Shown here piece after piece: positions 36,566 through 55,780 of a stretch of 64,000 nt of DNA. Position 1 is the stretch's first letter. Each line of letters opens with the position of its first letter. This DNA comes from an uncultured virus (IMG/VR IMGVR_UViG_3300020207_000018). Lineage: Duplodnaviria; Heunggongvirae; Uroviricota; Caudoviricetes. The notes below the pieces were generated by a model. It saw nothing but the letters and a program-made list of their open reading frames with translations, ran no database searches and was not told where the DNA came from. The translations under genes were made by a program, and so were the position numbers. Location of the stretch: the IMG/VR virus record IMGVR_UViG_3300020207_000018, positions 1-64,000 of that record, one strand, 5' to 3'.

Positions 36566-37261
36566 TTATAGGATCAAGTTGCCGCTTTCGTCTATATCAT
36601 ACTCAAAATTTGAATCATTCCAACCAATTCGTGAATTTTTATCATCCATGCAATTGACATCTAAATTAAAAGATATACTGTATCGATCTTTGTTTGTTAG
36701 ATTGGGTTCGACCATATGCATTAACCCACTAGGAAAAATGTATAAGTGACCTGTCTTAGGTTGTATCTGATAAGATTCAATCATTCTATTGTTGCCAGGA
36801 AATGCTCCTGCAACTTTATGATTTGTATCTATGAAAGTTAAATCGCCTTCGTCACCATCAGCATGTATATAAAATACACCTGAATAGAAACAACCATTGT
36901 GTAAGTGAGGTCTGTTCCATGCACCATTGTCATTAATGTTAGCCCATGAGTTATGCATATCAACACGGTGTGCATCTTTGTTTAATCCCATGAAAGGTAA
37001 TAACTCGTCTCTGACTAAACGTTTAATTGATCTTATACATTTAATAAAAGTTGGATGTTGATCGCAACCATCATTTGATTGCCAACCTGTATATGCATTT
37101 GATATCTTTCGACCAACAGGATCTTTCTTTCGCATACCATCAATCTCTCTTTTTAAGAGATCAAAGTATTCTGCATTCATCAATGTAGGTTCTTTATCTG
37201 CATCTTTGCCTAAAAAATCTCTATGAAAAACAAATGCAGGAAATAATAATTTTACACTCAT
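36566..37261 (-). CDS. Putative 2OG-Fe(II) oxygenase (TIGR02466-like)
   Basis: SWANIN, PHLH, SGVFY, FPSGLMHMVEPN, RYSISFN. Confidence 0.85.
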   Translation of the reverse strand: MSVKLLFPAFVFHRDFLGKDADKEPTLMNAEYFDLLKREIDGMRKKDPVGRKISNAYTGWQSNDGCDQHPTFIKCIRSIKRLVRDELLPFMGLNKDAHRVDMHNSWANINDNGAWNRPHLHNGCFYSGVFYIHADGDEGDLTFIDTNHKVAGAFPGNNRMIESYQIQPKTGHLYIFPSGLMHMVEPNLTNKDRYSISFNLDVNCMDDKNSRIGWNDSNFEYDIDESGNLIL

Positions 37262-38106
37262 TCTTCTACCTCATTATGAAAAGGACATTCAGGTGGTGGT
37301 TCATCTTCTTTGAAGTATTTACCTTTTTCTTGCCAATAACCTTCGTTTCTATATGGCCCAAGTTTAGTTCCCCTTAGTCTTGATTCATCGGAGTATTCTC
37401 TTCTACCTTGTTCATCCATAGACATCATTTCTGCATGTGAAGTTACTGAACTTCTGTTGTCCTGAAATTCTCTAGGACTACGTAATGTATACGTAGAATT
37501 CCATTCTTCTCTTTTAAAAGGAATAACCTGACACAATGGTGTGCCTTTTTTTATAGTAAATGAATGATTAACTCTAGGATAAAAAATTATTTGTGAATTA
37601 TCTTGGCTCACATTGAACTTATCTGTATCGATAATTCCTTGCCATGTAGCAAAGTATCTATTTTGAAATAAGAAAGGGTCTAAGTAAAGACATGAATAAC
37701 CCTCTGGTGTTATAATGTTCCATGGGTTTCTCATTTTAAATGCATCTTTGACAGGACCATCATCGCCAAAATAATCGAAAGCATTTTCAAATTGTTCTTT
37801 GGGGTGTGTAGGTGAAGCGTAATGTTCTCCTGAAGGATCGAAAGTTCTAACGTCTGTTGTACTTACACCGTCTTTTGCATTGTTACCTACGATAACTTCC
37901 ATGTCTCTGTTTGCAAGTAGGTACCAACCACTCTTTAACCAATCATCCATAGCAGGACATGCTCTGATAGTTTGAGTATTAACACCACGTACTACTGCAT
38001 TTACTTTAATTCTTTTCCACCAATCTGGATGCCATTTCTTTGCAAGAACTGGTTTAAAGTCTCTGAGAGTCTTCTCGTTATATGTAATAAAGTCTATCGT
38101 TGGCAT
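37258..38106 (-). CDS. Conserved hypothetical protein (DUF6065-like), often near phage oxygenases
   Basis: TIRACPAMDD, NPWNIITPEGYSCLY, GIIDTD, IKKGTPLCQVIPFKR. Confidence 0.6.
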   Translation of the reverse strand: MPTIDFITYNEKTLRDFKPVLAKKWHPDWWKRIKVNAVVRGVNTQTIRACPAMDDWLKSGWYLLANRDMEVIVGNNAKDGVSTTDVRTFDPSGEHYASPTHPKEQFENAFDYFGDDGPVKDAFKMRNPWNIITPEGYSCLYLDPFLFQNRYFATWQGIIDTDKFNVSQDNSQIIFYPRVNHSFTIKKGTPLCQVIPFKREEWNSTYTLRSPREFQDNRSSVTSHAEMMSMDEQGRREYSDESRLRGTKLGPYRNEGYWQEKGKYFKEDEPPPECPFHNEVEE

Positions 38107-38815
38107 TATAAAACTCTTCGCTAACTCCTATCTCTACTTCATCGCCTCTTAAAACAATTGATCTTCTATCCATGTATCTAGCAGTTTCATTTGGTGCATC
38201 TGCACCGTGTGGTATTCTGCCGTCAAACATTACTAATCTATTTGGTACAAACTCCACTTCAGCGATTTGGTGGTTTTTAATATGTTCGTTTCTACCTTCT
38301 AAACCCTGTTGAGGTTCATCATATAATCTTAATGTGCCACCCCATTCGGGATTCCAATATGTATTGTAATAGTATAAGAAAGATAAATTCCATGAATCAT
38401 TAGTATCACAATCTGCATGAGTTGTTCCATGACAACCCATTGTCTGTGAGTTTAAACCCATGTACTGAAATCTTTTCCATTTGAAACCGAAATCTGTACA
38501 TATTCTTCTATTTAGATAGTGAGCAGGATAAGAATCTTTCTTATCAATATCTCCTTCAACATTGTGAAATCCGAAATCTTTATTGTCCCGATCAGCCTTG
38601 AAGAAACTTGCACCCCAAAAACTATGGTGAGGTAATCCTGTTGGGCTTTCGCTACCCACTTGATTTGTTTTAGACCAAATATTACTGCTTGTAAATCTTT
38701 GATTAATCCAATGCCATATAGAAGTCTCTAAGTAATTATCAATTATGTAGACTTTATCTAAAGGTAATGATTGAATATGAAAAGGAGAATCAACCTTTTC
38801 TACAAGCAGGCTCAT
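38078..38815 (-). CDS. 2OG-Fe(II) oxygenase (P4H-like)
   Basis: HAD, FLYY, WNPEWGG, PNRLVMFDGRIPH, RRSI. Confidence 0.85.
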   Translation of the reverse strand: MSLLVEKVDSPFHIQSLPLDKVYIIDNYLETSIWHWINQRFTSSNIWSKTNQVGSESPTGLPHHSFWGASFFKADRDNKDFGFHNVEGDIDKKDSYPAHYLNRRICTDFGFKWKRFQYMGLNSQTMGCHGTTHADCDTNDSWNLSFLYYYNTYWNPEWGGTLRLYDEPQQGLEGRNEHIKNHQIAEVEFVPNRLVMFDGRIPHGADAPNETARYMDRRSIVLRGDEVEIGVSEEFYNANDRLYYI

Positions 38816-38816
38816 T

Positions 38817-39368
38817 TTATGCTATTAATGACTTTTGAGGTGATGGAAAATTATTTGAATAATACTCAAAGTCTTGTAGTGTGTCTTCTCTTGTTTCGCC
38901 TATTTCATTACATACATTAACGTATACATTCCATATAACGTCTGAATATTCCATAACTCTTCTTGCATCTGATCTTAAAGGGTGATTTGAGCCCTCTCTT
39001 CCTGCTATAGTTACTTCTAGTAAATCACGGAAACCATATGCTTGTACTTGATCATCGATATAGTTTTGAGCCATATCAGATAGTTTGTTTGCATACTGAT
39101 TGTTTAATGAAACACCAGCAGGTGGTTCAGACTGATTGATATATTCTTCGATAGCATCTATTTCATCTGAGTTTAGATTTATTTTGACCTGATCGTTAAA
39201 ACATTTATCTTCTTCCCATTTCTCAATTTTAACTTCGATGTCATCGTACACCAATACATCATATTCAAAACCAAGATTTGGTCTATCTGTGTTTTCGAAA
39301 GAGTATTCTAATCCATTTGGTTTTCTAATGATTAGATTACTGTTTTCATCATAAATTAACATATTCAT
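38817..39368 (-). CDS. Hypothetical protein (possible fibre assembly factor); likely start MNMLIY at 39368
   Basis: GAGG RBS; promoter at 39378-39406. Confidence 0.55.
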   Translation of the reverse strand: MNMLIYDENSNLIIRKPNGLEYSFENTDRPNLGFEYDVLVYDDIEVKIEKWEEDKCFNDQVKINLNSDEIDAIEEYINQSEPPAGVSLNNQYANKLSDMAQNYIDDQVQAYGFRDLLEVTIAGREGSNHPLRSDARRVMEYSDVIWNVYVNVCNEIGETREDTLQDFEYYSNNFPSPQKSLIA

Positions 39369-39377
39369 AATTACCTC

Positions 39378-39406
39378 ATTATACACTTGTGTGTGTTAAA
39401 TTTCAA
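39378..39406 (-). promoter_or_regulatory. Sigma70-type promoter TTGAAA-N17-TATAAT
   Basis: Near-consensus elements with 17-nt spacing. Confidence 0.65.
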
Positions 39407-41007
39407 GAGACTTTATTCGCTCTCGCATACGCTCTTTCATATACGTCTAACATATTTATATCACTGGTATCCATGTCTTTTATCCATGGGCCACCACGTG
39501 TCCAGTGAATTGCTAAAGCATGTGGTTTGTCTAAATGTGTTTCATATCCTTCAGTTATAATATGTCTAGGTGGTATTCTACTGATCTTGTCTGTCCATTC
39601 AAATTGATGTAAATACTTTCCTGACTCTGTATTCACTACTTCTGGTGTTAACTTCTTACAGTCTTCGTGTGCATTATTGAATACCATAAGACTAGACCAC
39701 AATTTCTTAGGATAAGAAACATTCTTTTCGCCATCAAATTTAGTATCACTATGATTTTCGAAATCGTATTGTACACAAGCAATAGCATCTTTTGGGTCTA
39801 AGAAATAGAATAGTGGTAGTATAGACTTACTAAACAATATGTCATCATCTAAGAAGATACTGAAACCTTCATAATTTTCTAGGTAAGGTATTAAGAATCT
39901 ACTATATGTAAACTCTGTTGATTGATTAGCATACTCTCTAGTGTATTCAGGTATCTTTGATACATCTAGTATCTTAATATTAGGTTGCCAGTCTTTTATA
40001 AATTCATACATGTCACCTTTACCAAAACCATATTCAATTCCTTTTTGAAGCAACTTAACATTTGTTTCAGCAAGATCACCATGACGACTATCGTAACCCA
40101 CATAGATTGATATAGGTTTGCCTTTTGCCATTTTCATAATGTTTTTATTGAAGTCTGTAACTGTACTTCTAAAACCGATATCAGCAAAAGCACTATGCAT
40201 TTCTATAAAACCCTCTGTATATGTAAATGAAAGATGTGTTGGTTTATCTTTCTTTTCAACAAAGGCTTTCCATAATTCAATTACTTGTTCAGCTGATAGA
40301 ACTTCTGAATCAAATAAATCAAACTTATCCCATACAAACATTTCCATATCTGGATCATCTATCATTTCAAATACTGCTGATCTTACAGAACCTGGATGTA
40401 TTCTAAGAGTGTATCGTTCTTCTTCTGAAGAAGGTTTGTTCACTACACCTTGGATTGGATTCCAAAGGCCTTCATGTTTGATACTATCAATTAACCAGTG
40501 TGCTTTAGCACTGTGATAATAAGTTGAATTATTGATTTCTAATTGTCTTTCAGTTGGGCCTTCTGCACCAAAAACATATTTTGTATAGTCTGTTATCTTT
40601 TGATATTCATCATTTCGGTTTTTGAAATCAAAGCCAGAATGACCAGGTATTGGTGTTTCAGGTTTTTCAGTATAACCGTACTGCAAATAATATTGATAGA
40701 CATATGCTTGATGTTGTAATTGATTAAACGGTTGTAATTTTGTTGTATCAGAATAATCGTATAATCTTTCGTCTATCAATTTAGAAGCTTCTTTCCATTT
40801 AACATGCTTTAGTTTTGGTAATTTATTCTTCATCAACCAATCTAAAGACTTATATGCTTCAGTTTCCTTGTAGTCTTTGGATAGTTCGATACTACCAATA
40901 TGACAATGATCCATGAAAATGACTTCATCGCCACTATCTGGCCCAAATGGTGATCTTCTATTTTGAAATGCTTCTTGTACGGCTTCTAAGGTTTCTAATT
41001 TTCTCAT
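39403..41007 (-). CDS. Two-domain protein: unknown N-terminal domain plus GT-A (GT8-like) glycosyltransferase
   Basis: IYVGYDSR, STEFTYSRFLIPYL, FLDDD, WSSLMVFN, LHQFEW, IHWTRGGPW. Confidence 0.8.
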   Translation of the reverse strand: MRKLETLEAVQEAFQNRRSPFGPDSGDEVIFMDHCHIGSIELSKDYKETEAYKSLDWLMKNKLPKLKHVKWKEASKLIDERLYDYSDTTKLQPFNQLQHQAYVYQYYLQYGYTEKPETPIPGHSGFDFKNRNDEYQKITDYTKYVFGAEGPTERQLEINNSTYYHSAKAHWLIDSIKHEGLWNPIQGVVNKPSSEEERYTLRIHPGSVRSAVFEMIDDPDMEMFVWDKFDLFDSEVLSAEQVIELWKAFVEKKDKPTHLSFTYTEGFIEMHSAFADIGFRSTVTDFNKNIMKMAKGKPISIYVGYDSRHGDLAETNVKLLQKGIEYGFGKGDMYEFIKDWQPNIKILDVSKIPEYTREYANQSTEFTYSRFLIPYLENYEGFSIFLDDDILFSKSILPLFYFLDPKDAIACVQYDFENHSDTKFDGEKNVSYPKKLWSSLMVFNNAHEDCKKLTPEVVNTESGKYLHQFEWTDKISRIPPRHIITEGYETHLDKPHALAIHWTRGGPWIKDMDTSDINMLDVYERAYARANKVS

Positions 41008-41036: not shown

Positions 41037-42167
41037 TTATGACGTAATTGGAGATGCTGGCCACTGTTGTGACAATACACCGTCCCAACGATTCACTGGT
41101 GTTCTACCTTGTGTAGCGTAAGTACTTGGTGATCTATGTTGATAGGTAAACGGAGTTCTACCTTGTCTAGAATATGTACTTGGTGATCTATGTTGATAGG
41201 TAAACGGAGTTTGACCTTGTCTTGCATATGTCACAGGTTGCCTATGTTGATATGTACTTGGCGATTGTGTTATTCTAGGATCTCTGTAAGTACTTGGTGA
41301 TCTGTGTTGATATGTGCTAGGTACACGATATGCTCTAGGATCTCTGTAAGTACTTGGTGATCTATGGTTATACGTGCTAGGTACTCTATAACTTCTTGGA
41401 TCACGATATGTAGATGGTGATCTGTGTTGATATGTGCTAGGTACACGATATGATCTTGGGTCTTGATATGTAGACGGCGATCTATGTTGATATGTGCTAG
41501 GTACACGATATGATCTAGGATCACGGTATGTAAATGGCGATCTATGGTTATATGTAAACGGTGACCTATGTTGATACGTAAACGGTGATCTATGTTGATA
41601 AGTCGAAGGTTGTCTAGCGCCTCTAATATTAGGTTCTTGTGCTGATACAGGGTGTCTGTAACCTGCTGGTTGTTGTGCTGATCTAATATTAGGTTCTTGT
41701 GCTGATACAGGGTGTCTATAACCTGCTGGTTGTCTAGCATTACCAATTACTGGTTGTTGTGCTGATACAGGTGCTCTATATGCTGCTGGTTGTCTAGCAT
41801 TTCTAATATTAGGTTCTTGTGCTGATCTGATATTAGGTTCTTGACCGCTTCTAATATTAGGTTCTTGTGCTGATCTAATATTAGGTTGTTGACCATTCGC
41901 AATATAAGGCGACTGGAAAGTAAACGGTTGCCTTGCGTTATTAGGTTGTTGAGCATTTGCAATATAAGGCGACTGGAAAGTAAACGGTTGCCTTGCGTTA
42001 TTAGGTTGTCTAGCATTTGCAATATAAGGTGACTGATATGTAAATGGATTCTGGAATGTAAATGGATTCTGGAATGTAAATGGATTCTGGAAAGTAAAAG
42101 GTGTCTGCACAGGAACAGAAGCCTGTGTAATACCTTGAGCATTTGCTGGATAAAAACCTGTTGCCAT
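41037..42167 (-). CDS. Pro-delimited repeat protein B (39 units, 334 of 376 aa); antiparallel complement of 42179..43954
   Basis: Units PFTFQN, PNNARQ, PYIANAQQ, PNIRSAQE, PAGYRHPVSAQE, PSTYQHRS, PSTYRDPRSYRV, PSTYSRQGRT. Confidence 0.85.
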   Translation of the reverse strand: MATGFYPANAQGITQASVPVQTPFTFQNPFTFQNPFTFQNPFTYQSPYIANARQPNNARQPFTFQSPYIANAQQPNNARQPFTFQSPYIANGQQPNIRSAQEPNIRSGQEPNIRSAQEPNIRNARQPAAYRAPVSAQQPVIGNARQPAGYRHPVSAQEPNIRSAQQPAGYRHPVSAQEPNIRGARQPSTYQHRSPFTYQHRSPFTYNHRSPFTYRDPRSYRVPSTYQHRSPSTYQDPRSYRVPSTYQHRSPSTYRDPRSYRVPSTYNHRSPSTYRDPRAYRVPSTYQHRSPSTYRDPRITQSPSTYQHRQPVTYARQGQTPFTYQHRSPSTYSRQGRTPFTYQHRSPSTYATQGRTPVNRWDGVLSQQWPASPITS

Positions 42168-42178
42168 TTTACTTTAGA

Positions 42179-43954
42179 TTACTTAGGTGATGGTTTAAAG
42201 AAGAAGAAGTTGTGAGCTAATACACCATTTGCAAAGAAATTGTGATTGTCGCCAACGTTCTTCAAGTTATACACCTGTTGTGAATCTTTCTCCTCTATTT
42301 TAATTATTTCTAGTCCTATTTCTGTACCTAGTACAGCATCTGTCATGGTCATCAAATGATCACCGACTGCGATTTCTGAATTTACAAATTCATCTCCACC
42401 TTCTTCTTTGTGGAATTCTTTAAATTTCTCTAAGTTGATAACACCCCATTCACCATTCATTGTTCTAAATGGATGTTCTGAAGTTGTTTCAAGTATTCTA
42501 CCGTCTGATAAATGTATCTCATGTATTGATACTTCTCTTGGTTGCATCAACTCTTCGACTACACCGATCTCTAATTTATTTGTCTCTTCGTTCCAAGTCA
42601 TTACGTCTTGACCAACTTCTACTGTTTCAATTGGTACATGACTGCCATCGCCCAACCATATCATTGTGCCGGCAACAAAACATCCTTTGCCACCTCCAGG
42701 AATGTTACCAGGTATTGGACCAAACGGTTGATAGAAGTACACTGCTGGGAAGATAAATGGATATCTTGCTGTTTGTTGTGTAGTACTTGGTTGCCTTGCG
42801 TTATTTGGTTGCCTTGCGTTGTTTGGTTGCCTTGCGTTATTAGGTTGTCTAGCAGCAACTGGTTGTCTTGCCTGATACGTAAACGGCGCACGGAATGTAA
42901 ATGGAGTCCTTGCGTTATTAGGTTGTCTTGCCTGATACGTAAACGGCGCACGGAATGTAAATGGAGTCCTTGCGTTATTAGGTTGTCTTGCCTGATACGT
43001 AAACGGCGATCTATGGTTATACGTAAACGGTGATCTGTGGTTATATGTAAACGGTGATCTGTGGTTATACGTATACGGTGATCTATGTTGATACGTAAAT
43101 GGCACCCTATATGATCTTGGATCACGGTATGTAAATGGTGATCTGTACGCATACGTAAACGGTATCTGATATGATCTTGGATCACGGTATGTAAATGGTG
43201 ATCTATGTTGATACGTAAATGGCACCCTATATGATCTTGGGTCTCTATATGTAAATGGTGACCTATGTTGATACGTAAACGGTGTTTGTGCGTTTCTGAT
43301 ATTTGGTTCTTGTGCAGACCTAATATTTGGTTCTTGACCGCTTCTAATATTAGGCTCTTGAGCAGCAACTGGATGTTGATAAGATGCTGGTGTTTGTCTA
43401 TTTCTTATAAACGGAGTCTGAGCACTTACAGGGTGATTATACCCAGCTGGTGTTTGTGCGTTTCTGATAAACGGATTCTGTGCATTAACAGGATGTTGAT
43501 AAGAAGCAGGTTGTTGTGCGTTTCTGATAAACGGATTCTGTGCATTTACTGGATGTCTATAGAATGCTGGTGTTTGTCTATTTCTTATAAACGGATTCTG
43601 TGCATTAACAGGATGTCTATATGATACAGAGTTTTGTGCATTCGCAATATAAGGCGATTGAGCATTCGCAATATAAGGATACGGCTGTTGTGCATCTCTT
43701 ATAAATGGATTCTGTCTATTAGCAATATAAGGATACGGCTGTTGTGCATCTCTTATAAATGGATTCTGTCTATTAGCAATATAAGGATATGGCTGTTGTG
43801 TAGGTTGTTGACCTGATGCGTTATTCCACCCACTAGGAGTTTTAATGTAAATTTGATCTACATCTTTCCAAGTGTTTGAAGCAGTTTTAACCCATGCACC
43901 TTGGGTTGAATTCCAACCTGAGGGGGTTTTTACTTTCTGTGAGCCTGTCGCCAT
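42179..43954 (-). CDS. Pro-delimited repeat protein A (39 units) with C-terminal Hint domain; putative fibre subunit
   Basis: W-rich N-terminal cap, repeat residues 55-388, then CFVAGT...TSEHPF...HNFFANGVLAHN. Confidence 0.85.
   Translation of the reverse strand: MATGSQKVKTPSGWNSTQGAWVKTASNTWKDVDQIYIKTPSGWNNASGQQPTQQPYPYIANRQNPFIRDAQQPYPYIANRQNPFIRDAQQPYPYIANAQSPYIANAQNSVSYRHPVNAQNPFIRNRQTPAFYRHPVNAQNPFIRNAQQPASYQHPVNAQNPFIRNAQTPAGYNHPVSAQTPFIRNRQTPASYQHPVAAQEPNIRSGQEPNIRSAQEPNIRNAQTPFTYQHRSPFTYRDPRSYRVPFTYQHRSPFTYRDPRSYQIPFTYAYRSPFTYRDPRSYRVPFTYQHRSPYTYNHRSPFTYNHRSPFTYNHRSPFTYQARQPNNARTPFTFRAPFTYQARQPNNARTPFTFRAPFTYQARQPVAARQPNNARQPNNARQPNNARQPSTTQQTARYPFIFPAVYFYQPFGPIPGNIPGGGKGCFVAGTMIWLGDGSHVPIETVEVGQDVMTWNEETNKLEIGVVEELMQPREVSIHEIHLSDGRILETTSEHPFRTMNGEWGVINLEKFKEFHKEEGGDEFVNSEIAVGDHLMTMTDAVLGTEIGLEIIKIEEKDSQQVYNLKNVGDNHNFFANGVLAHNFFFFKPSPK
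42209..42682 (-). other. Hint / intein-like autoprocessing domain
   Basis: Cys1 (CFVAGT), block B TSEHPF, VYNL, terminal His-Asn. Confidence 0.85.
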
Positions 43955-43987: not shown

Positions 43988-46285
43988 TTATGAATAAAGA
44001 ATCCATAGATCACCAACTGCTCCGTCACCTGAAGTAGGTGCAGAAGTTGATTGATATATGTTTCTCGCAACACCACCACTATTTGAAGCGTATGATGTTG
44101 AAATTTGTGATGCTCTAAAGTTTGCGTCTGTTAATGTTAACGAACCTGTAGAAGCACCAGTTGCAGTTGTTGTAGCAACTACAAACTCATCAGCACTTTC
44201 GTCCCAACCCATAAATGCGTTGTCGCCAGTTGAACCTCTTTCTAACACAAGACCAAGGTCATTTGAGTTAGCACCTGTGTTACCAGACCCTAATTCAATC
44301 AATGCATCACTGATTGTTGTATTTGTAGAATCTACAGTTGATGTAGTACCATTAACTGTTAGGTTACCAGATAATGTTAAGTTACCAAATTGTACGTTAC
44401 TTGTTGTAGCAACTGCCTGACCAATACTTATTTCACCTGAACTAATTGAGACACCAGTTCCTGCACTAATATGACTTCTAACTTCTGAAGCGCTTGGGCC
44501 AGTATATGTGATTACACCAGTAGATGAATTGTATGCTAAACTTCCATCACCACCTGAATCAGTAACAGAGATTGAACCTCTTGCATCTGAATCAGCATAT
44601 TGTGTAATTGTTGTTGCAAGTGTTAAGGTACCATTTACATCATCGTATGTTGATGTGATGCCTGTACCTGCTGTTACTAAAGCATTTACTCTGTCATCAA
44701 CTCTTTCCTCTGTGAAGTATAAGTTTGATGAACCTTCTGTTAACGAATCTGTATCTGGTAATAATGCATTAACTCTAGCATCTGCTCTAGCGTTTGTAAA
44801 GTAAAGGTTTGAACCTTCTGAAATATGAGCAGTTGTTGAAGGTATTGTAATAGCACCTGTACTTGAATCATATGCACCTGCACCAGAGTTTGTACTTAGA
44901 GATGCTCTTGCTCTAGCATCTGTATAGAATAAGTTTGTTGAACCTTCTGTAATGTCATCTGAATCACCACTTAGTTCACTTAATGCATCTGCTGTATCTA
45001 CTTGTGCATCAACATAAGTTTTGACTGCTAACTGAGAAGGTACTAAAGTATCTGAAGCACTACCAAAATTAACATCTGTATCGATTGCATTTTGAACTCT
45101 AGCGTCTGCTCTTGCATTTGTAAAGTATAAGTTTGTAGAGCCTTCTGTTATTTCATCTGTATTGTCTTTACTTGCGACTTGTGAATCTACATATGCTTTA
45201 ACTGATTGTTGAGAAGGTATTCTTGTTTCACTATTAGACACCATATTATCTTCATCGATAAGAGCTGCTGTGATTCTAGCATCTGCTCTAGCGTCAGTGA
45301 AATATAAGTTTGAACCTTCTGCTAAATCACCAGTGTCATGGTTAGCAATACTAGTAACTGTACCAGTTACGTTACCAGTTAAGTTTCCTTCGAATGTTCC
45401 TGCAACAAAAGTTTCTGAACCGACTGTCCATTTATCGTTGGTCTCATCCCATAAGAATGTTTTTGCAGTTGAACTACCTCTAGTTACACTCAAACCAGCA
45501 TCTTCTGTTGGTGAACCTGAAGTAAAGTTACTGTTTAATGCGATTGTGTTGTCTGCAAGGTTAATTGTCTCTGAGTTTACAGTTGTTGTTGTACCTGAAA
45601 CTGTTAGTGAACCTGAGATTGTAACATCATCGTTAAGTGAAATAACACCATTTCCGTTACCACTCAATACTAAGTTAGTATCAGCTGATCTGGACACGAT
45701 TTGATCAACTGCAATATTGTTACTAAATGTGATGTTGTTTCCTGCACTGTTGGTAATATTGTTACCGTCTTCGATTTGAACTGGACCTTTAAGTGCAATA
45801 ACACCTGATCCTGTTGCATCTAACTCTAAATCACCAGAACCACTTGTCTGTATAGACATGTTTTGGTTAGAGTCAGCACTAAAGACGATTGTACCTGAGT
45901 CATCTGAAATAACCTGTTGTCCGTTAACATATAAAGAACCAGGTCCAACGTATACGTCTTTCCATGTTCTACTTGATGAACCTAAGTCGTATGTGTTATC
46001 TGCGCTTGGTATGATGTTACCTGCAAATGTACCACCACCTAAGTATGATAATACATCTGAGTCGCCGTATTGGGCTGCACCTGCGATTGTTAGTGTGTTA
46101 GCAGCATCATCGTATGTTAATGTGATGCCTGTACCTGCTGTTAAAAGTTGAGCGACTCTATCGTCTACTGACTCATCTAATGCTGATGCTGAAATTGAAC
46201 CAACGTATGATCCAGAAGAGCTAATAACCTCTGTTCCACCGATTGACAGGCCGTTTTTAATATTAAAATTCTTTTCCCCTGCCAT
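43988..46285 (-). CDS. Tail-fibre-like structural protein with EGSxNLYFTxARA repeats
   Basis: About six TEG(S/T)xNL(Y/F)(F/Y)T repeats, GNLTVNGTT motifs, C-terminal GDGAVGDLWILY. Confidence 0.8.
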   Translation of the reverse strand: MAGEKNFNIKNGLSIGGTEVISSSGSYVGSISASALDESVDDRVAQLLTAGTGITLTYDDAANTLTIAGAAQYGDSDVLSYLGGGTFAGNIIPSADNTYDLGSSSRTWKDVYVGPGSLYVNGQQVISDDSGTIVFSADSNQNMSIQTSGSGDLELDATGSGVIALKGPVQIEDGNNITNSAGNNITFSNNIAVDQIVSRSADTNLVLSGNGNGVISLNDDVTISGSLTVSGTTTTVNSETINLADNTIALNSNFTSGSPTEDAGLSVTRGSSTAKTFLWDETNDKWTVGSETFVAGTFEGNLTGNVTGTVTSIANHDTGDLAEGSNLYFTDARADARITAALIDEDNMVSNSETRIPSQQSVKAYVDSQVASKDNTDEITEGSTNLYFTNARADARVQNAIDTDVNFGSASDTLVPSQLAVKTYVDAQVDTADALSELSGDSDDITEGSTNLFYTDARARASLSTNSGAGAYDSSTGAITIPSTTAHISEGSNLYFTNARADARVNALLPDTDSLTEGSSNLYFTEERVDDRVNALVTAGTGITSTYDDVNGTLTLATTITQYADSDARGSISVTDSGGDGSLAYNSSTGVITYTGPSASEVRSHISAGTGVSISSGEISIGQAVATTSNVQFGNLTLSGNLTVNGTTSTVDSTNTTISDALIELGSGNTGANSNDLGLVLERGSTGDNAFMGWDESADEFVVATTTATGASTGSLTLTDANFRASQISTSYASNSGGVARNIYQSTSAPTSGDGAVGDLWILYS

Positions 46286-46545
46286 TAGATAGTACCTCCG
46301 TCAACTTGCGGTAATGAAAACTCACCCGTTGATGAGTTATAAGATAAATTCGTTTCTCCAGATGCTAATGAAATAGCACCTCTTGCTTTTGCGTTAGTAA
46401 AATATTGATTCGTTGCACCTTCTGTGATGTCATCTGAGTCTAGTGCGGATACTGATCCAGCGGTAATTTTACCAGCACTAGTTATGACCTCTGTAGAACC
46501 GATGTTTAATCCGTATTCTATAACAAAATTATTTTGTGTTGCCAT
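46285..46545 (-). CDS. Small fibre-associated protein
   Basis: One EGATNQYFT repeat, ends DGGTI; N-terminus resembles that of 43988..46285. Confidence 0.65.
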   Translation of the reverse strand: MATQNNFVIEYGLNIGSTEVITSAGKITAGSVSALDSDDITEGATNQYFTNAKARGAISLASGETNLSYNSSTGEFSLPQVDGGTI

Positions 46546-46633
46546 GGTTAGTGTGTCCTAATTGAGTGTATACAGTATTATTTAGTAGAGATTACTCTTC
46601 AAAAAGGTGGTTTAAACAAAATTTAAACAAAAA

Positions 46634-47374
46634 TCATACTTTAATTAATTGACGTGACCATTTGAATACAGTCGAGTTTGCAGAAGCAGGTGTAATCTTT
46701 AAAACTACATTACCACTTTCAACTGCAACTGATACTGAATACAACGAACTATTTGTAACTATCTCAGCGTATTGTGTAAAGTAAGCAGTTGAACCGTCAT
46801 GAATTACAACAACTTCAGATGTGTGATAGTTTGTACCCTCTGTTGCTTGTAAAATATACTTAGCACTTCGATAATTTGATAAAGAAAACGAATCTAAGTC
46901 TGTTTCCGATGTTGTAGTGGTTGTTGTACCTGTATTACTATCAACAACCAAACTATCGATTGTTAATGTGTCTGAAGCAGTGATAGTAGTGCATGTTAAA
47001 TCACCAACTTCTAAAGCTGCTTTAGCGTAACCTGTGCCTGAAGTGTTAACTGTTGTAGTAGGTTCTACTTCTAAACCGTCAAATAATTTCCATGTAGAAT
47101 CACTAGCATCTCTAAAAAGACCTGTGAACTCATTGCCGCTGTCTGATAAACCATCATCGTAGTTACCATATAACCCTATGTCAACTGTATCTGAACTCGT
47201 GTTTGAGTTCGCAAGTTCGATCATTGAGTCTATAACAGACGTGGTTGTACTGTTAACGGTAGTTTGTGTACCATTAACTGTTAAATTGCCTGTGATTGTC
47301 GCATCGCCATCGACCAACAGGTCTTGACCTGTTTCTAGTCCTATGTCTGCATAAAATTTTGATTTTGTTGCCAT
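46634..47374 (-). CDS. Virion structural/fibre protein
   Basis: [12 protein letters not shown]-terminal YRSAKY...HDGS...ITPASANST domain shared with the next two genes. Confidence 0.7.
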   Translation of the reverse strand: MATKSKFYADIGLETGQDLLVDGDATITGNLTVNGTQTTVNSTTTSVIDSMIELANSNTSSDTVDIGLYGNYDDGLSDSGNEFTGLFRDASDSTWKLFDGLEVEPTTTVNTSGTGYAKAALEVGDLTCTTITASDTLTIDSLVVDSNTGTTTTTTSETDLDSFSLSNYRSAKYILQATEGTNYHTSEVVVIHDGSTAYFTQYAEIVTNSSLYSVSVAVESGNVVLKITPASANSTVFKWSRQLIKV

Positions 47375-47430
47375 AATAATCTCAAAAATATATTCTCAGT
47401 ACTATTTATGACTTTTTGGAAGTAAAAGAA

Positions 47431-47450
47431 AGGGGATCATGTGATCCCCT
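47431..47450 (-). terminator. Intrinsic terminator
   Basis: AGGGGATCA-tg-TGATCCCCT hairpin with a U-rich tail on the minus strand. Confidence 0.65.
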
Positions 47451-47470
47451 CTCAAGAAAGTTGCTTAGTT

Positions 47471-47881
47471 CTAAGCGCCTACTAAAGTCCTGTGGAATTT
47501 AATAGTTGTACTGTTTGCTGAGGCAGGTGTAATTCTGAGTCTCAAGTCGGAACCATTAATGTCAGCATCGAATGATGCAACACTAGTGTTTTTCAATGTA
47601 CCGTATTGAGTCATGGTTACTGCGCTTCCGTCATGTACTAATACTATCTCAGTTGAATGATAGTTAGAACCTTCTGACATTGCAATAACATATCTAGCAG
47701 CTCTAAAGTCAGCATGGGCAAAAGTGTCCAAGTCGACTTGAGATGTAGATGTTGTTGTTAATGCTGTAGACGTTCTATGTTTAGTATCCAACTCTTTAGA
47801 AGTAGTGATGACATCATTAGATGAATCGTAAGACAATACTCTAATTAACTCAGCGACTTTAAATGCATTTGTTTTAGCCAT
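47471..47881 (-). CDS. Virion structural protein (shared C-terminal domain)
   Basis: FRAARYVI...HSTEIVLVHDGS...ITPASANST. Confidence 0.7.
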   Translation of the reverse strand: MAKTNAFKVAELIRVLSYDSSNDVITTSKELDTKHRTSTALTTTSTSQVDLDTFAHADFRAARYVIAMSEGSNYHSTEIVLVHDGSAVTMTQYGTLKNTSVASFDADINGSDLRLRITPASANSTTIKFHRTLVGA

Positions 47882-47891
47882 TGTCTACTCC

Positions 47892-48719
47892 TTATGATAA
47901 CCTAATTTGGAAGGTTTTGAATGTTGTATTAGTATTTGCAGGAGTCACAAGCAATCTCATGTTTCCTGAATTTACATCTGAACTTAACGTGAATAATGAA
48001 GACGCTGAATATACATCGCCATATTGAACGAAGTAAGAATTCGAGCCATCATTAATCAATAATACTTCTGCTGAATGTGTGCCAGCTGATGCATGTGATG
48101 CCATGATCACATACTTAACTGCCTTGTTGGCAATTGCGTTTGCTGATAACACCTGATCTGCTGTAGTAGCAGTAGCTGATAATGTAGTGAAGTAACCTTG
48201 AACAAGGTTAGCTGCACTAGTAATAGCGACTACTTCAACAACATCACCATTTAAAGCATTTTCCGTTAATGTGATAGTTGATGAGCTGGTAGCAGTATAG
48301 TCTGCACCACCACCTACTAACTTAACACCGTTAATGTACACTTGTTCATAACCTGAGGTATATGAAAGTGAATTACCATTATCATCGTTACCTGTAATTG
48401 AAGTACCAGTTGATGATATAGTGTAAGTGAATGTTTGTACACCCGAAGATGGTTGGTCTGACCAACTCAAAGTTCCTGAACCATCAGTTTTTAAAATCTG
48501 ATTTGAGGAACCATCACTTGTAGGAAAAGAGAAAGCATCATTAACAGTTAAAGAAGCTGGATTCGATCCAACTTCTACAACAGCAGCTGAGCCGTCATTC
48601 TTCTCGGTATAAAATCTACCATGATAAGTATTGACAGCTAATTCACCTAGTGATAGATCACCTATACCAGGCAAAGCGCTTTGTGTAGAACTCCTTTTAA
48701 ATTGTATTAATGTTGCCAT
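47892..48719 (-). CDS. Tail-fibre-like protein (Mtd-N-like start)
   Basis: IQFKRSS...GELAVN, PTSDGSSNQILKTDGSG, VYINGVKL, shared C-terminal domain. Confidence 0.7.
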   Translation of the reverse strand: MATLIQFKRSSTQSALPGIGDLSLGELAVNTYHGRFYTEKNDGSAAVVEVGSNPASLTVNDAFSFPTSDGSSNQILKTDGSGTLSWSDQPSSGVQTFTYTISSTGTSITGNDDNGNSLSYTSGYEQVYINGVKLVGGGADYTATSSSTITLTENALNGDVVEVVAITSAANLVQGYFTTLSATATTADQVLSANAIANKAVKYVIMASHASAGTHSAEVLLINDGSNSYFVQYGDVYSASSLFTLSSDVNSGNMRLLVTPANTNTTFKTFQIRLS

Positions 48720-48747
48720 TGTTCTCTCCTATAGATTAGATGTTAAA

Positions 48748-50316
48748 TTAGAATGTACCACCGTCTATAGCAGTAACAGATACAGCACCTGAAGAGACTG
48801 TAAAGTTACTTGAGTCGAATGAAGCAATACCTTTAGCAGATGTTGTAGCATCATCGATTGCAACATCACCAGATGTTACAGTAAAGTATGAAGCTGAGAA
48901 AGATGCGATACCTTTATTAGCGTCTGTTGCATCTTCACCTGCTATTGTTATACTACCGTCAGCGTTTGTTACATCGATACCTTCGCCAGCTGAAAGAGCA
49001 GCAAGTTCCATATCTCCGTTAGAACCATTACCAATTAGTAATTGTCCTGCTGTAGGAGCTGCACCGTCTATAGAAGTAATTGAACCTGAAAGTGCAAGTC
49101 CTGAAACTTCTAAGTTACCGAATACTGCGTTACCTACTGAACCAGAGAATACTGAAGATGTGTCTGTAGCGTCTTGGATAAATTTAAATTTACCGTCAGA
49201 ATCATCCATACCAAAGAAACCAATTTTAGCAGTAGAACCATTGTGCCACTTAAATTTGATACCTCTGTCTAGGTTGTCATCTGAAGCGTCATCACCGATT
49301 TCAAACACTGGATCTGCAACTGAAGTAGTTGTAGAGTTTACAGTAGTTGTAGTACCGTTAACAGTCAAGTTACCTGAAACTGTTAAGTTACCTGAAGCGG
49401 CAATATTTGTTGATGTAATGTCATCTGAAGTTAGTGTACCATCTACTTGTACGTTGTTAAACTGTACGTTTGATGATGTGCCAACATCCTGACCGATTGC
49501 TAATGTTACGCCGTTGCCTGAAGCAGTTGATGAAACACCAGTACCACCTAAAACAGAAAGTACTTCTGAGTCAAGGTCGATAGCAATAGATGTAGTACCA
49601 TCTGAGATGTCTAAATCTTGTGCTGTTACTTGTGAATCAACATATGCTTTAACAGATTGCTGTGTAGGAACTTTAACGTCTGAATCAGAAGCCATGTTGT
49701 CTTCGTCAACTAAGAAGTCAATGTTTCCTACTTGAACTGCGTTAGCTTGAATTGCAGTAACACCTGAAGCGTTAACTGTTATGTCACCTGAAAGTGAAAC
49801 GTTATCAAATGAATCTGTACCATCATAGATCAAAATTTGACCTGATGAAGGAGCAGAAATATCTGAGTCTGATGCACCAGCAAGTGTTGAAGTTGTAGAT
49901 ACGAAAGAAAGGTTTCCTGAAGCATCTGTTGCAAGAACCTGGTTAGCAGAACCATCAGCTGATGGTAATGTAAAGGTTACTGAACTTGCAACTGAATCAG
50001 GAGCTTTCAGACCAACGAAGTTTGAACCGTTGTCTGAATCTTCTCTAAGTTGTAATGAAGCACCAGAAGTTGCACCGTTACCAACAATAAAGTTTGAAGG
50101 CGTTGGAGCATCACCGTCTACGATATCGGTATAATATTTACCGCCGATTTCGTGAATAACAGCTGATGAGCCTGAGTCTACTGACTCGATATACAATTTA
50201 GCAGAAGCACCGTCATTCGATCTATCCTGTACATACGCTAATTCGCCTTCGCTCAAGTCTGAGACTGTTGGCGCACTCGCTCCTGTACTTCTTTTAATTT
50301 GAATAACTGTTGCCAT
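48748..50316 (-). CDS. Tail-fibre-like protein
   Basis: IQIKRSTG...[28 protein letters not shown] repeats, ends DGGTF. Confidence 0.75.
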
Positions 50317-51064: not shown

Positions 51065-51994
51065 CTAATTATTTAATTGGGAATATGGGACTTTTGTATG
51101 TATTTTTTCTACTGTAGTTGGATCAGTTTTTACGTATGCTTCTTCTAATTGTTTTACAGTACCGTCTGCATCTTTAACATAAACTTGTTTAACTTCTGCT
51201 ACAGGACCTATAGGTCTTCTGCTAGAATATGTTATCTGATATGTAAATGGTGATCTATGTTGATATGTAGTTTGTACAACAATGTTACCACTTCTTGTAT
51301 TCTGAGCATTTGCAATATATGGTGAAGGTTGAGAAGCAGAAACCCTATATGTATCTGGCGATCTATGTTGATACGTAAATGGTATTCTATGTTGATAGAA
51401 CGATGGTGATCTATGTTGATACGTAAATGGTGTTCTACCTGTTGTAGGATATGTTATAGGTTGCCTATGTTGATATGTTGTTGGTGTTCGCCCTGTTGCC
51501 TGATATGTTGAAGGCTGTCTTGCATCTCTAATAAATGGATTCTGTCTATCAACAGGATGTCTGTAAGTTGTAGGTGAAGGTTTATTTCTTATAAACGGAT
51601 TCTGTTTATTTACAGGATGTCTGTAATTAGCTGATATACGATAGCTACCAATTATCGGATTCTGTCTGTTAACAGGATGTTGATAAGCTGCTGGTTGACG
51701 TTGATTTGCAACATAAGGTGATGGTCTATTTCTAATAAACGGATTCTGTTGTTGTGCAATGTATGGTGATTGAAATGGACTTCTTGCGATAGCAGCTGTC
51801 TGTGCGTTTGCTATGTAAGGAATAGGCACTCTAGTATTAGCAACTGTCTGAGCGTTTGCTGATGCACGGGCATTAGCAATGTACGGCACAGGCGTAGTAC
51901 CGTTAGTAGAATTTTGTCTATTAGCAATATAAGGATACGGCTGTTGTCCTGGCGTTGCGTTTGAATTGCTATATGTTACTTGTACGGTTGGCAT
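51065..51994 (-). CDS. Pro-delimited repeat protein D; antiparallel complement of 51996..53660
   Basis: Residues 19-260 use the same unit alphabet as A and B; C-terminal VKQVYVK...EEAYVK cap. Confidence 0.85.
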   Translation of the reverse strand: MPTVQVTYSNSNATPGQQPYPYIANRQNSTNGTTPVPYIANARASANAQTVANTRVPIPYIANAQTAAIARSPFQSPYIAQQQNPFIRNRPSPYVANQRQPAAYQHPVNRQNPIIGSYRISANYRHPVNKQNPFIRNKPSPTTYRHPVDRQNPFIRDARQPSTYQATGRTPTTYQHRQPITYPTTGRTPFTYQHRSPSFYQHRIPFTYQHRSPDTYRVSASQPSPYIANAQNTRSGNIVVQTTYQHRSPFTYQITYSSRRPIGPVAEVKQVYVKDADGTVKQLEEAYVKTDPTTVEKIHTKVPYSQLNN

Positions 51995-51995
51995 T

Positions 51996-53660
51996 TTATA
52001 CTATTATTGGCCCCCCACTACCTGCATTATATGCTGCTCTTAAACTTATGGGGCTTGATGACCAAGAACCGTTGAAGTATGAAGCTATATGAAAATATGT
52101 ATAATAAGTGTCTGTGCCTTTTGTTGCTTTTATTCCAAAATAAACATCATTTGATGTTAATTGTACTGGATTACCTGTGCTGTCGTATACACCCCACTTA
52201 AAAAATCTAGCAGTGCGAGTACCATTAAATCCACCCCTTGAAGTTGAACCAGACCAGAAATTATAATATTGGCCTCTGGTTTTTCCACAAACATGTGGAT
52301 AAAATCCATAACTGTTTCCACCTCCTCCGTAACAATTTGTTTGAGCTTGAGTACCTGATACCGATTCACCACTTGCATAATATGCTACATCAAAATTCCA
52401 AGTATCGTCAATTATACCATTAGCATTCAAATCGGTAATAGGCATATAAAATCTATAATAAAAACTCCAACCACTATTACTAAAAGAGTTATAATGACCA
52501 TACGATATTCTAAAAGCCCCTAAAGGATTTGTCTGAACAGTATTATTGTTAGCTGCAAAATCAAATTGCATATAACAACCACATTCGGTATGATTAAAAC
52601 CAGGATTACCAGTTGCTAATTGAAGAGTATTCCAACTTGGTACACTAAACATAGAAGCAGTTCCTGAAGGTGGGTCAGAATTTATATAATTCGTACTACC
52701 ACCAAAAGGATATACATCCCAAACAGGATTACTTATACCTGAGCCCCAAGGTTGAGGGTTCGGTTGATTAGCTAAAGTTGCACTTGTTGCTGTTGAACTT
52801 CCAGACAGTGCTGATTCGCCTACAATACCTTCATATGATGTTGGTACCTGAGCAGTCGATGGTGACTGATATATGTAAGGCGTTTGGCCTTGTGCTGAAT
52901 AAGTCGAAGGCGATTGATAAATGTAAGGCGATGGTCTTTGCGCCTGATACGTAAACGGATTTTGATAAATCGATGGCACCCTATATGTTTGAGGACTTCT
53001 TTGTTGTGCTTGATAAGTTGAAGGCACTCTATAAGGTACAGGTTGTTGATTTGACTCCTGTGCGTTTATATTTGCTGGTGACTGGTGTTGATACGTAGTA
53101 GGTTGTTGTGCCTGATATGTTACAGGATTTCTGTAACTTCTTGGGTCACGATATGTACTAGGTGATCTATAAGCATAACTTACAGGATTTCTGTAACTTC
53201 TTGGGTCACGATATGTACTAGGTGATTGATGTTGATACGCAACTATAACCTGTGCATTTCTTGGGTCTCTATAAGTTGAAGGACTTTGATGTTGATACGT
53301 AAACGGTGTTTGTGCGTTTGCAGGATACGGATACGGATTCTGTCTATTAGCAATATAAGGTGATTGTGCATCGGCCTGATAAGTATACGTTTGTTGTGCG
53401 TTTCTTATAAAAGGATTTTGTCTCGATCTTATGTTAGGTTGCTGTGCGTTTCTTATAAAAGGATTTTGCCTATTAACAGGATTTCGATAAATTATTGGTT
53501 GTTGATTCTGATAAGTCGAAGGAGACTGAAACGTATAAGGAACAATCGATGGTTGTTGTCTTATATTTGGTGCTTGAATGTTAGCAGGTTGCCTTGCTAT
53601 GTAAGGTTGCTGAAAACTACCGCCATTTAAATTGTGTTTAATGTAAATTTTATCTGCCAT
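51996..53660 (-). CDS. Pro-delimited repeat protein C with C-terminal globular (receptor-binding-like) domain
   Basis: Residues 19 to about 272 are repeats, followed by about 280 aa of G/S/N/aromatic-rich sequence. Confidence 0.8.
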   Translation of the reverse strand: MADKIYIKHNLNGGSFQQPYIARQPANIQAPNIRQQPSIVPYTFQSPSTYQNQQPIIYRNPVNRQNPFIRNAQQPNIRSRQNPFIRNAQQTYTYQADAQSPYIANRQNPYPYPANAQTPFTYQHQSPSTYRDPRNAQVIVAYQHQSPSTYRDPRSYRNPVSYAYRSPSTYRDPRSYRNPVTYQAQQPTTYQHQSPANINAQESNQQPVPYRVPSTYQAQQRSPQTYRVPSIYQNPFTYQAQRPSPYIYQSPSTYSAQGQTPYIYQSPSTAQVPTSYEGIVGESALSGSSTATSATLANQPNPQPWGSGISNPVWDVYPFGGSTNYINSDPPSGTASMFSVPSWNTLQLATGNPGFNHTECGCYMQFDFAANNNTVQTNPLGAFRISYGHYNSFSNSGWSFYYRFYMPITDLNANGIIDDTWNFDVAYYASGESVSGTQAQTNCYGGGGNSYGFYPHVCGKTRGQYYNFWSGSTSRGGFNGTRTARFFKWGVYDSTGNPVQLTSNDVYFGIKATKGTDTYYTYFHIASYFNGSWSSSPISLRAAYNAGSGGPIIV

Positions 53661-55569: not shown

Positions 55570-55780
55570 TTATTTTCTCTTCTATCTTTCTAAGAAGTTC
55601 CTTAACTTCGGTTACTTCTTGTCTTAAACTATTTATTTCCTTTTTCTGAGAAGCAATGATTTGTCTTCTTCTCATTACCAATTTAAACTGTTCAACATCT
55701 GTATTGATAATTGCTTGTGAACGTTCTTCTCTAATTAGATTTGAATGTCCTTCAACCTTTATCATGCTAATGCTATACAT
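55562..55780 (-). CDS. Small conserved coiled-coil protein
   Basis: [10 protein letters not shown]...AIIN, typical next to the large baseplate protein. Confidence 0.65.

Follow-up and report, generated by a model that had tools for sequence, protein, structure and literature searches.

Two adjacent genes, here called A and B, in a 64,000-nucleotide stretch of the uncultured virus record IMGVR_UViG_3300020207_000018 (the window, meaning that whole stretch) raise the question of why the order of short, proline-led repeat units in one protein should be the exact reverse of the order in its neighbour. It is proposed that the arrays of A and B pair antiparallel, in register and over their full length, as the stalk of a fibre encoded by a host-recognition gene cluster, a reading that we regard as likely. 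In our view the mirrored repeats are a feature of a new kind, for which the structural interpretation is well supported but unproven. Direct contact between A and B, a beta-ribbon geometry, any higher oligomerisation, the role in a fibre and self-cleavage of the Hint domain on A are what we infer from the sequences of these proteins.

The earlier note on this DNA had placed A and B at the coordinates given in Table 1 and had read from them a series of 39 unit lengths that runs from N to C terminus in A and from C to N terminus in B; the coordinates hold, and the series was reproduced by splitting residues 55-388 of A and 23-356 of B, 334 residues each. In this parsing the 10- and 12-residue units hold an internal proline (2+8 and 6+6), and one unit (SVSYRHPVNAQN) begins with Ser instead of Pro. 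The mirror is independent of the parsing, because the proline positions alone reveal it: at a single ungapped shift 47 of the 52 B prolines coincide with A prolines, compared with 33 at the next best shift and with 29 (A against forward B), 31 (A against reversed A) and 30 (B against reversed B) in controls. This ungapped cross-correlation replaced a local alignment of proline-spacing strings, which was confounded by local palindromes such as (6,6,8)n and by lost prolines; circular shifts of the units are a poor control, a shift by one unit hardly altering the pattern. When the unit order of B was permuted, none of 1000 shuffles reached 47 matches (mean 19.1, maximum 29). The resulting register sets residue i of A opposite residue 412-i of B.

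The match extends from prolines to all residues. With a log-odds matrix of facing residues built from the A/B family, A scores 506 bits against reversed B (A43-391 opposite B21-369) and 18 bits against forward B. When the window pair was excluded from the training of this matrix, A against reversed B still reached 500 bits, and 384 bits once proline was set to zero; the proline-zeroed score over the whole overlap is 370 at the mirror shift versus 57.5 at the next best. Two further claims of the earlier note concern what faces what. That opposed units are never of the same class is borne out by all 42 facing single-proline segments, whose forward identity is at most 0.43. That either protein folded back on itself loses register at once is true for A folded exactly between units 18 and 19, but a fold between units 17 and 18 holds both register and class complementarity over 7 units. 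The self-match of A joins arms 137-215 and 219-297, and that of B arms 116-192 and 218-294, at about 100 bits each.

The same mirror recurs in homologous gene pairs. A first scan of viral contigs with B as the query found 73 loci, 68 of them with two adjacent same-strand repeat open reading frames (ORFs) that make up 43 distinct pairs, or 40 once three with A cut by a contig end (L002, L022 and L036) were left out. A second scan with protein D, which is encoded elsewhere in the window, added 24 distinct A/B pairs and brought the total to 64, a locus with truncated A (L080), C/D-type pairs and ORFs below 200 residues having been set aside. The mirror match exceeds the forward match in all 64 pairs, the opposite of the uncorrelated unit orders that the earlier note had named as a refutation of its reading, and 0 of 200 unit shuffles per pair reach the observed match in any of them; for the 40 pairs of the first scan, 0 of 1000 shuffles do so in every pair. 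The ungapped match takes in at least 85% of the B prolines in 47 of the 64 pairs and at least 75% in 57.

Across these pairs the array ranges from about 206 to 538 residues, and the two partners change length together. Array extents determined without alignment correlate between A and B at r = 0.954 (n = 40); the array starts at residue 55 of A in 36 of the 40 pairs, the shift is exactly 35 in 34 of them, and the part of B that lies outside the matched array has one fixed length in each clade (28, 24 or 42 residues). On a maximum-likelihood tree of the neighbouring glycosyltransferase, which has 34 rows since six of the 40 pairs have no long enough match, array length takes 24 values and is unequal between sister rows. 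In the clade of L004, L008 and L026 a 44-residue super-repeat changes its copy number jointly in A and B. The class patterns of the units vary strongly between clades, each pattern being mirrored by its own partner. Even where the gene order is reversed, with the B-like gene upstream of the A-like gene (L146, L148 and L150), the two distinct pairs keep the mirror, with 27 of 29 B prolines matched.

The mirror is also specific to the partner and to the unit class. Of 38 distinct A proteins, 26 have their best mirror partner in the cognate B, and for 11 more it ranks second or third, tied with near-identical B proteins (37/38); only the A of L052 is matched better by another B, that of L016, than by its own. 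Facing segments are of the same class in 1.3% of 1401 cases, compared with 29.9% of 28,779 random same-length pairs. With proline set on proline, enrichment at facing positions is seen for Tyr-Ala/Gly, Phe-Glu/Gln, His-Arg, Arg-Ile, Thr-Gln and Asn-Ser, symmetrically in both directions. In protein structures generally, aromatic residues opposite Gly or Ala are favourable cross-strand neighbours.

A second pair in the window, C and D, is a looser mirror pair than A/B. Residues 65-264 of C stand opposite residues 16-215 of D, and C scores 129 bits against reversed D, with 20 Pro-Pro matches and 16 unpaired prolines; cross combinations of C or D with A or B give 58-88 bits. Each of the four proteins thus scores best with its own partner, which adds support to the suggestion of the earlier note that unit order acts as a barcode. 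Nine of 10 distinct homologous C/D pairs beat their unit-shuffled controls (L113 fails), and repeats of this sort are confined to A, B, C and D within the 78-kb parent record.

Some relatives carry both halves of the mirror in one chain. In the database proteins P0005, P0014, P0083, P0061, P0070, P0104, P0112 and P0156 the two halves of the array mirror and complement each other in a hairpin-like manner. The arms of P0005 (residues 2-99 and 167-264) match at 166 bits, the maximum after shuffling being 81 in 20 shuffles or 67 in 5; against maxima of 5 shuffles, the self-mirror scores are 152 versus 50 bits for P0083, 122 versus 50 for P0156 and 111 versus 60 for P0014. P0083 begins with a C-like N-terminus and finishes with a D-like C-terminus, and between these lie two arrays separated by a middle domain of 137 residues; from this layout it looks like a C-D fusion folded as a hairpin with a domain at its tip. 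At one facing position the homologues P0083 and P0112 have PNIRNKQS:PVIYDHRS and PVIYDHRS:PNSRSKQS, respectively, a compensatory class swap that corresponds, at the protein level, to a G-C pair becoming C-G in nucleic acids. No simple A-B read-through fusion was found among the longer relatives, where self-mirroring proteins were found instead.

The composition of the arrays points to beta structure. Proline makes up 14-15% of the residues and recurs every 2-12 residues, most often at spacings of 8 and 6, with 10 and 2 also seen, and the spacings are even in 1870 of 1873 cases in A and 1699 of 1702 in B. Counted from proline, the same parity is kept by proline itself (3647/3651) and by Ile (1192/1235), and the opposite parity by Tyr (2396/2397), Phe (1235/1237), His (651/651), Val (456/469) and Glu (500/524), Tyr, Phe and His together being on the opposite parity in 4282 of 4285 cases. 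Glycine accounts for 0.6% of the residues in the array of A and for 2.7% in that of B. Because period 2 stays in phase over hundreds of residues and across unit boundaries, the arrays look like continuous two-faced strands, and both features expected of two antiparallel beta strands are present, namely alternation of faces with period 2 on each strand and covariation of the facing positions. Proline is tolerated at the non-hydrogen-bonded positions of a two-stranded ribbon.

We therefore describe the proposed pairing as follows. Each array would be one long two-faced beta strand with a proline every 2-12 residues, bearing Pro, Ile and most Thr and Gln on one face and Tyr, Phe, His, Val, Glu and most Ala and Gly on the other. 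Proline would stand opposite proline, and a bulky TY-class unit (PxTYQHRS, PxTYRD, PFTFxx or PxTYxxQGRT) opposite a small or polar AQ-class unit of equal length (PxIRxAQx, PVxAQx, PNNARx or PYPYIANxQx), so that the order of unit lengths and classes would determine which partner is bound, in what orientation and register, and over what length. At one end the conserved N-terminal domain of A would meet the conserved C-terminal tail of B; the variable C-terminus of A, a Hint domain in the window pair, and the short N-terminus of B would meet at the opposite, distal end. The conserved A/B end is presumed to be virion-proximal, by analogy with fibres that attach to the virion by their conserved end. 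Fully extended, 334 residues would measure roughly 100-110 nm. The earlier note had likewise seen A and B as an antiparallel, zipped, beta-type heteromer; that view is supported by the mirror and its covariation in 64 of 64 pairs, by the class rule and by the parity, and its beta part gains support from the even proline spacings and the near-absolute split of residues between the two parities.

Several points weigh against this pairing. Both A and B are partly self-complementary (about 100 bits and 7 units each), and hairpins or antiparallel homodimers over some 70-80 residues are possible. In seven of the 64 pairs a single ungapped register takes in fewer than 75% of the B prolines (L152, the worst at 0.49, L052 at 0.63, L106, L136, L063, L129 and L144), and among the pairs of the first scan the super-repeat copy number differs on one side only in L017 (B longer by 44 residues), L015 (B shorter by 44), L052 (A shorter by 88) and L063 (A shorter by 18). 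Such mismatches may be assembly errors, because short-read contigs break inside the arrays and because the neighbour genes match those of siblings: that of L017 is identical to the one of its matched sibling L021, those of L015 and L052 to the one of their matched sibling L026, and that of L063 to the one of L069, whose B is the B of the matched siblings of L063 (L058 and L064). They may equally be real tolerated variants or intermediates of coordinated change. The pair counts are not independent events, because the pairs share ancestry and the matrix was trained on the same family; the tree-based view and the shuffle controls are fairer measures than raw counts. As to the contacts themselves, Phe-Glu, His-Arg and Arg-Ile are not obviously favourable, both arrays are net basic, and the actual register may differ from the one given here by a constant shift. 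We know of no precedent for a lone two-stranded ribbon of 334 residues.

Other explanations of the mirror were weighed against this background. A and B could bind antiparallel as stacked beta-meanders, with one strand per unit, turns at the prolines and unit i of A over unit 40-i of B, in a rod of about 19 nm (39 x 0.48 nm). The mirror and the class complementarity would apply equally to such a sandwich, in which matched unit lengths would equalise the width at each level, prolines at unit starts could mark the turns and even lengths suit regular hairpins. However, the period-2 faces run unbroken through the unit boundaries, as in one continuous strand; the boundaries are without Gly or Asn-Gly turn signals, at the low glycine contents given above; and the internal prolines of the 2+8 and 6+6 units suit Pro-Pro pairing better than one turn per unit. 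We consider this arrangement unlikely, although these points are not decisive against it. Quite unlikely, in our estimate, is that A and B never touch, each forming homo-oligomeric fibres or self-hairpins, and that the mirror stems from a shared outside constraint such as opposite runs along a third component. The partial self-complementarity of both proteins and the single-chain relatives, which show that units can pair within one chain, fit such an account, as does the fact that most known phage fibres are parallel homotrimers. Nevertheless, self-pairing spans only about 70-80 of the 334 residues where the A-B match spans all of them, full-length covariation in 64 pairs and near-universal class complementarity would be needless between chains that never meet, and the 78-kb record yielded no further gene whose pattern matches theirs.

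A lack of any defined pairing was also considered, the arrays being extended, largely disordered proline-rich spacers of the extensin or mucin kind, perhaps hydroxylated or glycosylated by neighbouring enzymes. AlphaFold2 monomer predictions yield no fold for B alone (36-sequence alignment, no secondary structure, predicted local distance difference test score (pLDDT) 39.0) or for P0083 (15-sequence alignment, pLDDT 29.9), an ESM Atlas search with B returned only extended proline-rich look-alikes (extensin, proteoglycan 4) besides the viral clusters of B itself, and a block of oxygenase and glycosyltransferase genes is kept beside B, its gene order unchanged, in 70-73 of 73 loci. Disordered spacers would leave the mirror, the class complementarity, the period of 2 and the compensatory swaps unexplained, the arrays have no runs of proline, and the synteny may just reflect the gene order of related phages; we find this account highly improbable. 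Next to no probability attaches to the mirror being a by-product of the DNA, whether from a duplicated and inverted stretch that is read on the other strand or from low-complexity periodicity. An inversion would indeed reverse the unit order, and several alternative frames are open across the arrays, but a repeat search of the window finds 0 inverted pairs, the DNA of the A array is at most 33.6% identical to the reverse complement of that of the B array, and in 36 pairs the mean reverse-complement identity is 0.19-0.34 at offsets from -24 to +24 nucleotides, which is the background level. An origin from inverted repeats or antisense reading was rejected. Moreover, antisense translations are unlike the partner, the observed match is never attained by shuffling the units, which preserves composition and periodicity, and clades with different unit orders are each mirrored in their own partner.

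Three fibrous folds were rejected as candidates for the arrays: a collagen-like triple helix, given the scarcity of glycine and the lack of a period of 3; an extensin or polyproline-II type, given the strict period of 2 and a proline spacing of 1 found once in 1873 in A and never in 1702 in B; and a helical or coiled-coil array, given the period of 2 and a proline every 2-12 residues, which breaks heptads.

Beyond the A/B duplex, we put forward a modular pairing code for proteins of marine T4-like phages. A linear barcode of units would specify partner, register and length in the way that a nucleic-acid strand does, and in this code two classes of proline-delimited beta units in four lengths (6, 8, 10 and 12) would pair antiparallel, only with the opposite class and the same length, would build duplexes (A/B, C/D) and hairpins with a tip domain (P0005, P0083) and would evolve by compensatory gains, losses and class swaps of units. 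The case for and against this generalisation is, in our judgement, evenly balanced.

The features of the four proteins and of the block downstream of B are listed in Table 1.

Table 1. Mirrored repeat genes of the window, their parts and the gene block downstream of B.
Feature	Position	Strand	Description
Gene A	42179..43954	-	591 residues; conserved N-terminal domain, repeat array, aromatic/poly-Gly linker, C-terminal Hint domain
A residues 1-54	43793..43954	-	Conserved non-repeat N-terminal domain; two KTPxGW / (I/V)(Y/W)(I/V)KT motifs
A residues 55-388	42791..43792	-	Repeat array; 39 units of 6, 8, 10 or 12 residues, 334 residues
A residues 389-424	42683..42790	-	Post-array linker, aromatic-rich (YPFIFPAVYFY), ending in GGGKG just before the Hint Cys
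A residues 425-582	42209..42682	-	Hint/intein-like autoprocessing domain; Cys425, TSEH 491-494, His-Asn 581-582, then Phe583
Gene B	41037..42167	-	376 residues; start 11 nucleotides 3' of the A stop codon, same strand
B residues 23-356	41100..42101	-	Repeat array, 334 residues; the 39 unit lengths of A reversed, complementary class throughout
B residues 357-376	41040..41099	-	Conserved C-terminal tail PVNRWDGVLSQQWPASPITS (RWDG..W-P..P-I-T-S)
Gene C	51996..53660	-	554 residues; N-terminus MADKIYIKH, array about 20-290, C-terminal globular domain
Gene D	51065..51994	-	309 residues; partner of C; array and conserved C-terminal tail
Block downstream of B	36566-41007	-	534-residue protein with GT8-like (glycosyltransferase family 8) C-terminal half, 189-residue ORF, 2OG-Fe(II) (2-oxoglutarate/iron) oxygenase (PF13640), 282-residue ORF, second 2OG-Fe(II) oxygenase

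By its N-terminal domain, A has homologues in 65 of the 73 loci. This domain is 70-91% identical across loci, with many invariant columns in the A alignment, and is matched by 17 cluster representatives at E<=1e-10 among 1.84 billion. The N-terminal half of the A array (170 residues) is of the PYIAN/PxIR/PAxYxHPVxAQ class, and the C-terminal half (164 residues) is mostly of the PxTY/PFTF class with PNNAR units interleaved near the end. A homologues that lack the Hint domain end either in unrelated domains or in a similar, short aromatic and poly-Gly tail. In the tail of B, R360, W361, D362, W369, P370 and P373 are invariant in the B alignment. A strand-like motif, (I/V)(Y/W)(I/V)K(T), is found on the minus strand in the N-terminal domain of A (AWVKT and IYIKT; 43793-43954), at the N-terminus of C (KIYIKH; 53630-53660) and in the C-terminal tail of D (QVYVKD and AYVKT; 51065-51200), and the ends that share it are those that would meet in each pair. 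Long open frames overlie the arrays at 41270-41746, 41747-42142 and 42661-43368 on the minus strand and at 42608-43033 and 43265-43624 on the plus strand; these look like by-products of stop-poor repeats, their translations being unlike the partner arrays.

The C-terminus of A carries the hallmarks of a Hint domain. Its N-terminal nucleophile would be Cys425, which follows GGGKG at a G|CF junction, and a block B TxxH motif (TSEH) and a C-terminal His-Asn are both present. The +1 position holds Phe583 where splicing requires Cys, Ser or Thr, and canonical splicing is therefore not expected; the nine-residue tail after His-Asn is FFFFKPSPK. PF14890 (Intein_splicing) matches at E 5e-8 and 33.3 bits, under the Pfam gathering threshold of 35.8, and four further Hint models match at 16-22 bits, each under its own cut-off. 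The domain is optional, being on A in 24 of 73 loci. It thus resembles Hint, intein and bacterial intein-like (BIL) domains in its Cys1 after Gly, its TxxH block and its C-terminal His-Asn, and differs from them in the +1 Phe, the sub-cut-off score and the optional presence. It probably cleaves itself off without splicing, in the manner of BIL or Hog domains. The self-cleaving C-terminal intramolecular chaperones of tailspikes and fibres are likewise removable C-terminal modules, and the Hint domain of A could serve in this way, although those chaperones have another fold and chemistry, with a Ser-Lys dyad instead of a Cys thioester.

The parent record is 78,374 nucleotides long with a CheckV completeness of 43%. 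The window virus is a marine T4-like myovirus, with PHROG matches to portal, major head protein, sheath, terminase, neck proteins and a baseplate wedge subunit, and its capsid protein is 63-66% identical to those of the nearest isolates, Methylophilales phage Melnitz and Pelagibacter phages HTVC008M and Mosig. A and B are flanked on one side by fibre-like genes; on the other come a block with a glycosyltransferase and two 2OG-Fe(II) oxygenases and, beyond it, the neck genes. According to PMC7029224, the region from VrlC to gp14 in pelagimyophages and cyanomyophages is a hypervariable "host recognition cluster" with tail fibres and GT8 glycosyltransferases. The 2255-residue protein at 55762-62529 on the minus strand, which matches phrog_358 and phrog_877 and adjoins the baseplate wedge gene, is probably the protein of VrlC type with which this cluster begins. 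Upstream of A, at 43988-50316 on the minus strand, lie several fibre-like proteins with repeated NLYFT(D/N)ARAD-type motifs that match the structural and tail-fibre families phrog_697 and phrog_892. The Pro/Asn/Thr-rich arrays could be hydroxylated or glycosylated by the adjacent oxygenases and glycosyltransferase; the conserved synteny may merely mirror the kinship of related phages. Searches of PDB sequences with the two oxygenases and the 282-residue ORF returned two uncharacterised proteins or no match. Contigs identical to parts of A and B (41037-43954) occur in two metatranscriptome libraries (X11 and X16) and in several salt-marsh and marine DNA runs. The former do not prove transcription, because RNA libraries can contain DNA, and many joints inside the arrays of these contigs resemble repeat artefacts.

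Database searches placed neither protein in a described family. B matches 0 Pfam and 0 PHROG families, and no curated family covers B or the arrays. The only PHROG match of A is phrog_21587, of unknown function, on the Hint region, where all but one of its Pfam matches also fall; the remaining one is a sub-threshold Cementoin match at array residues 135-161, and for weak, multi-stretch matches to the N-terminal domain of A Pfam returned noise only. A phmmer search of the PDB with B gave 0 matches at E<=1. Megablast of 7 kb against phage records gave no match, tblastn with A and B against 50,697 phage records gave only two low-complexity matches (a Ruminococcus phage and a Vibrio phage), and Melnitz, HTVC008M and Mosig have no match to A or B by tblastn, the Mosig glycosyltransferase lying in a different gene context. 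The homologues of A and B are metagenomic and unnamed, and the NCBI-sourced cluster names are all hypothetical proteins from marine metagenomes. The literature searched, including passages of PMC7029224 and PMC5259590, describes neither such proteins nor pairs whose repeats mirror each other.

Known systems share parts of this logic. The antiparallel coiled-coil arms of SMC and Rad50 (intramolecular) and of spectrin alpha and beta are likewise long antiparallel segments with matched lengths and interruptions, and they show the same duality of duplex and hairpin with a tip domain as A/B and C/D on the one hand and P0005 and P0083 on the other; they are built of alpha-helical heptads, whereas the arrays described here are proline-rich with period 2, and complementary by unit class and length. 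The shafts of phage T4 gp5 and gp12 (beta-helices with octapeptide repeats) and of adenovirus (triple beta-spiral) likewise consist of short, beta-rich tandem repeats of variable number encoded in tail-fibre genes, but they are parallel homotrimers of one gene product with no known reversed, complementary partner gene. With nucleic-acid duplexes and hairpins the likeness is one of logic only, in that antiparallel pairing, an alphabet of complementarity, compensatory swaps and both two-strand and hairpin forms are shared; the paired elements there are bases, and here they are modules of 6-12 residues in two broad classes, with length as a second variable. We know of no described pair of proteins with compensatory gains, losses or swaps of units between them.

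Covariation of units of this sort is routine evidence for RNA helices. If the pairing proposed here is true, it would represent a new build for a phage fibre, an antiparallel heteromer or hairpin in place of a parallel homotrimer, and it would account for how similar repeat proteins find partner and register within one infected cell. It would also supply a natural, tunable, orthogonal beta-zipper for fibres of set length, and thus an alphabet or template for the design of heterospecific beta pairing. For the abundant uncultured marine phages that carry these genes, it would provide a testable rule leading from sequence to length and from sequence to partner in the most variable part of their genomes, the one concerned with host recognition.

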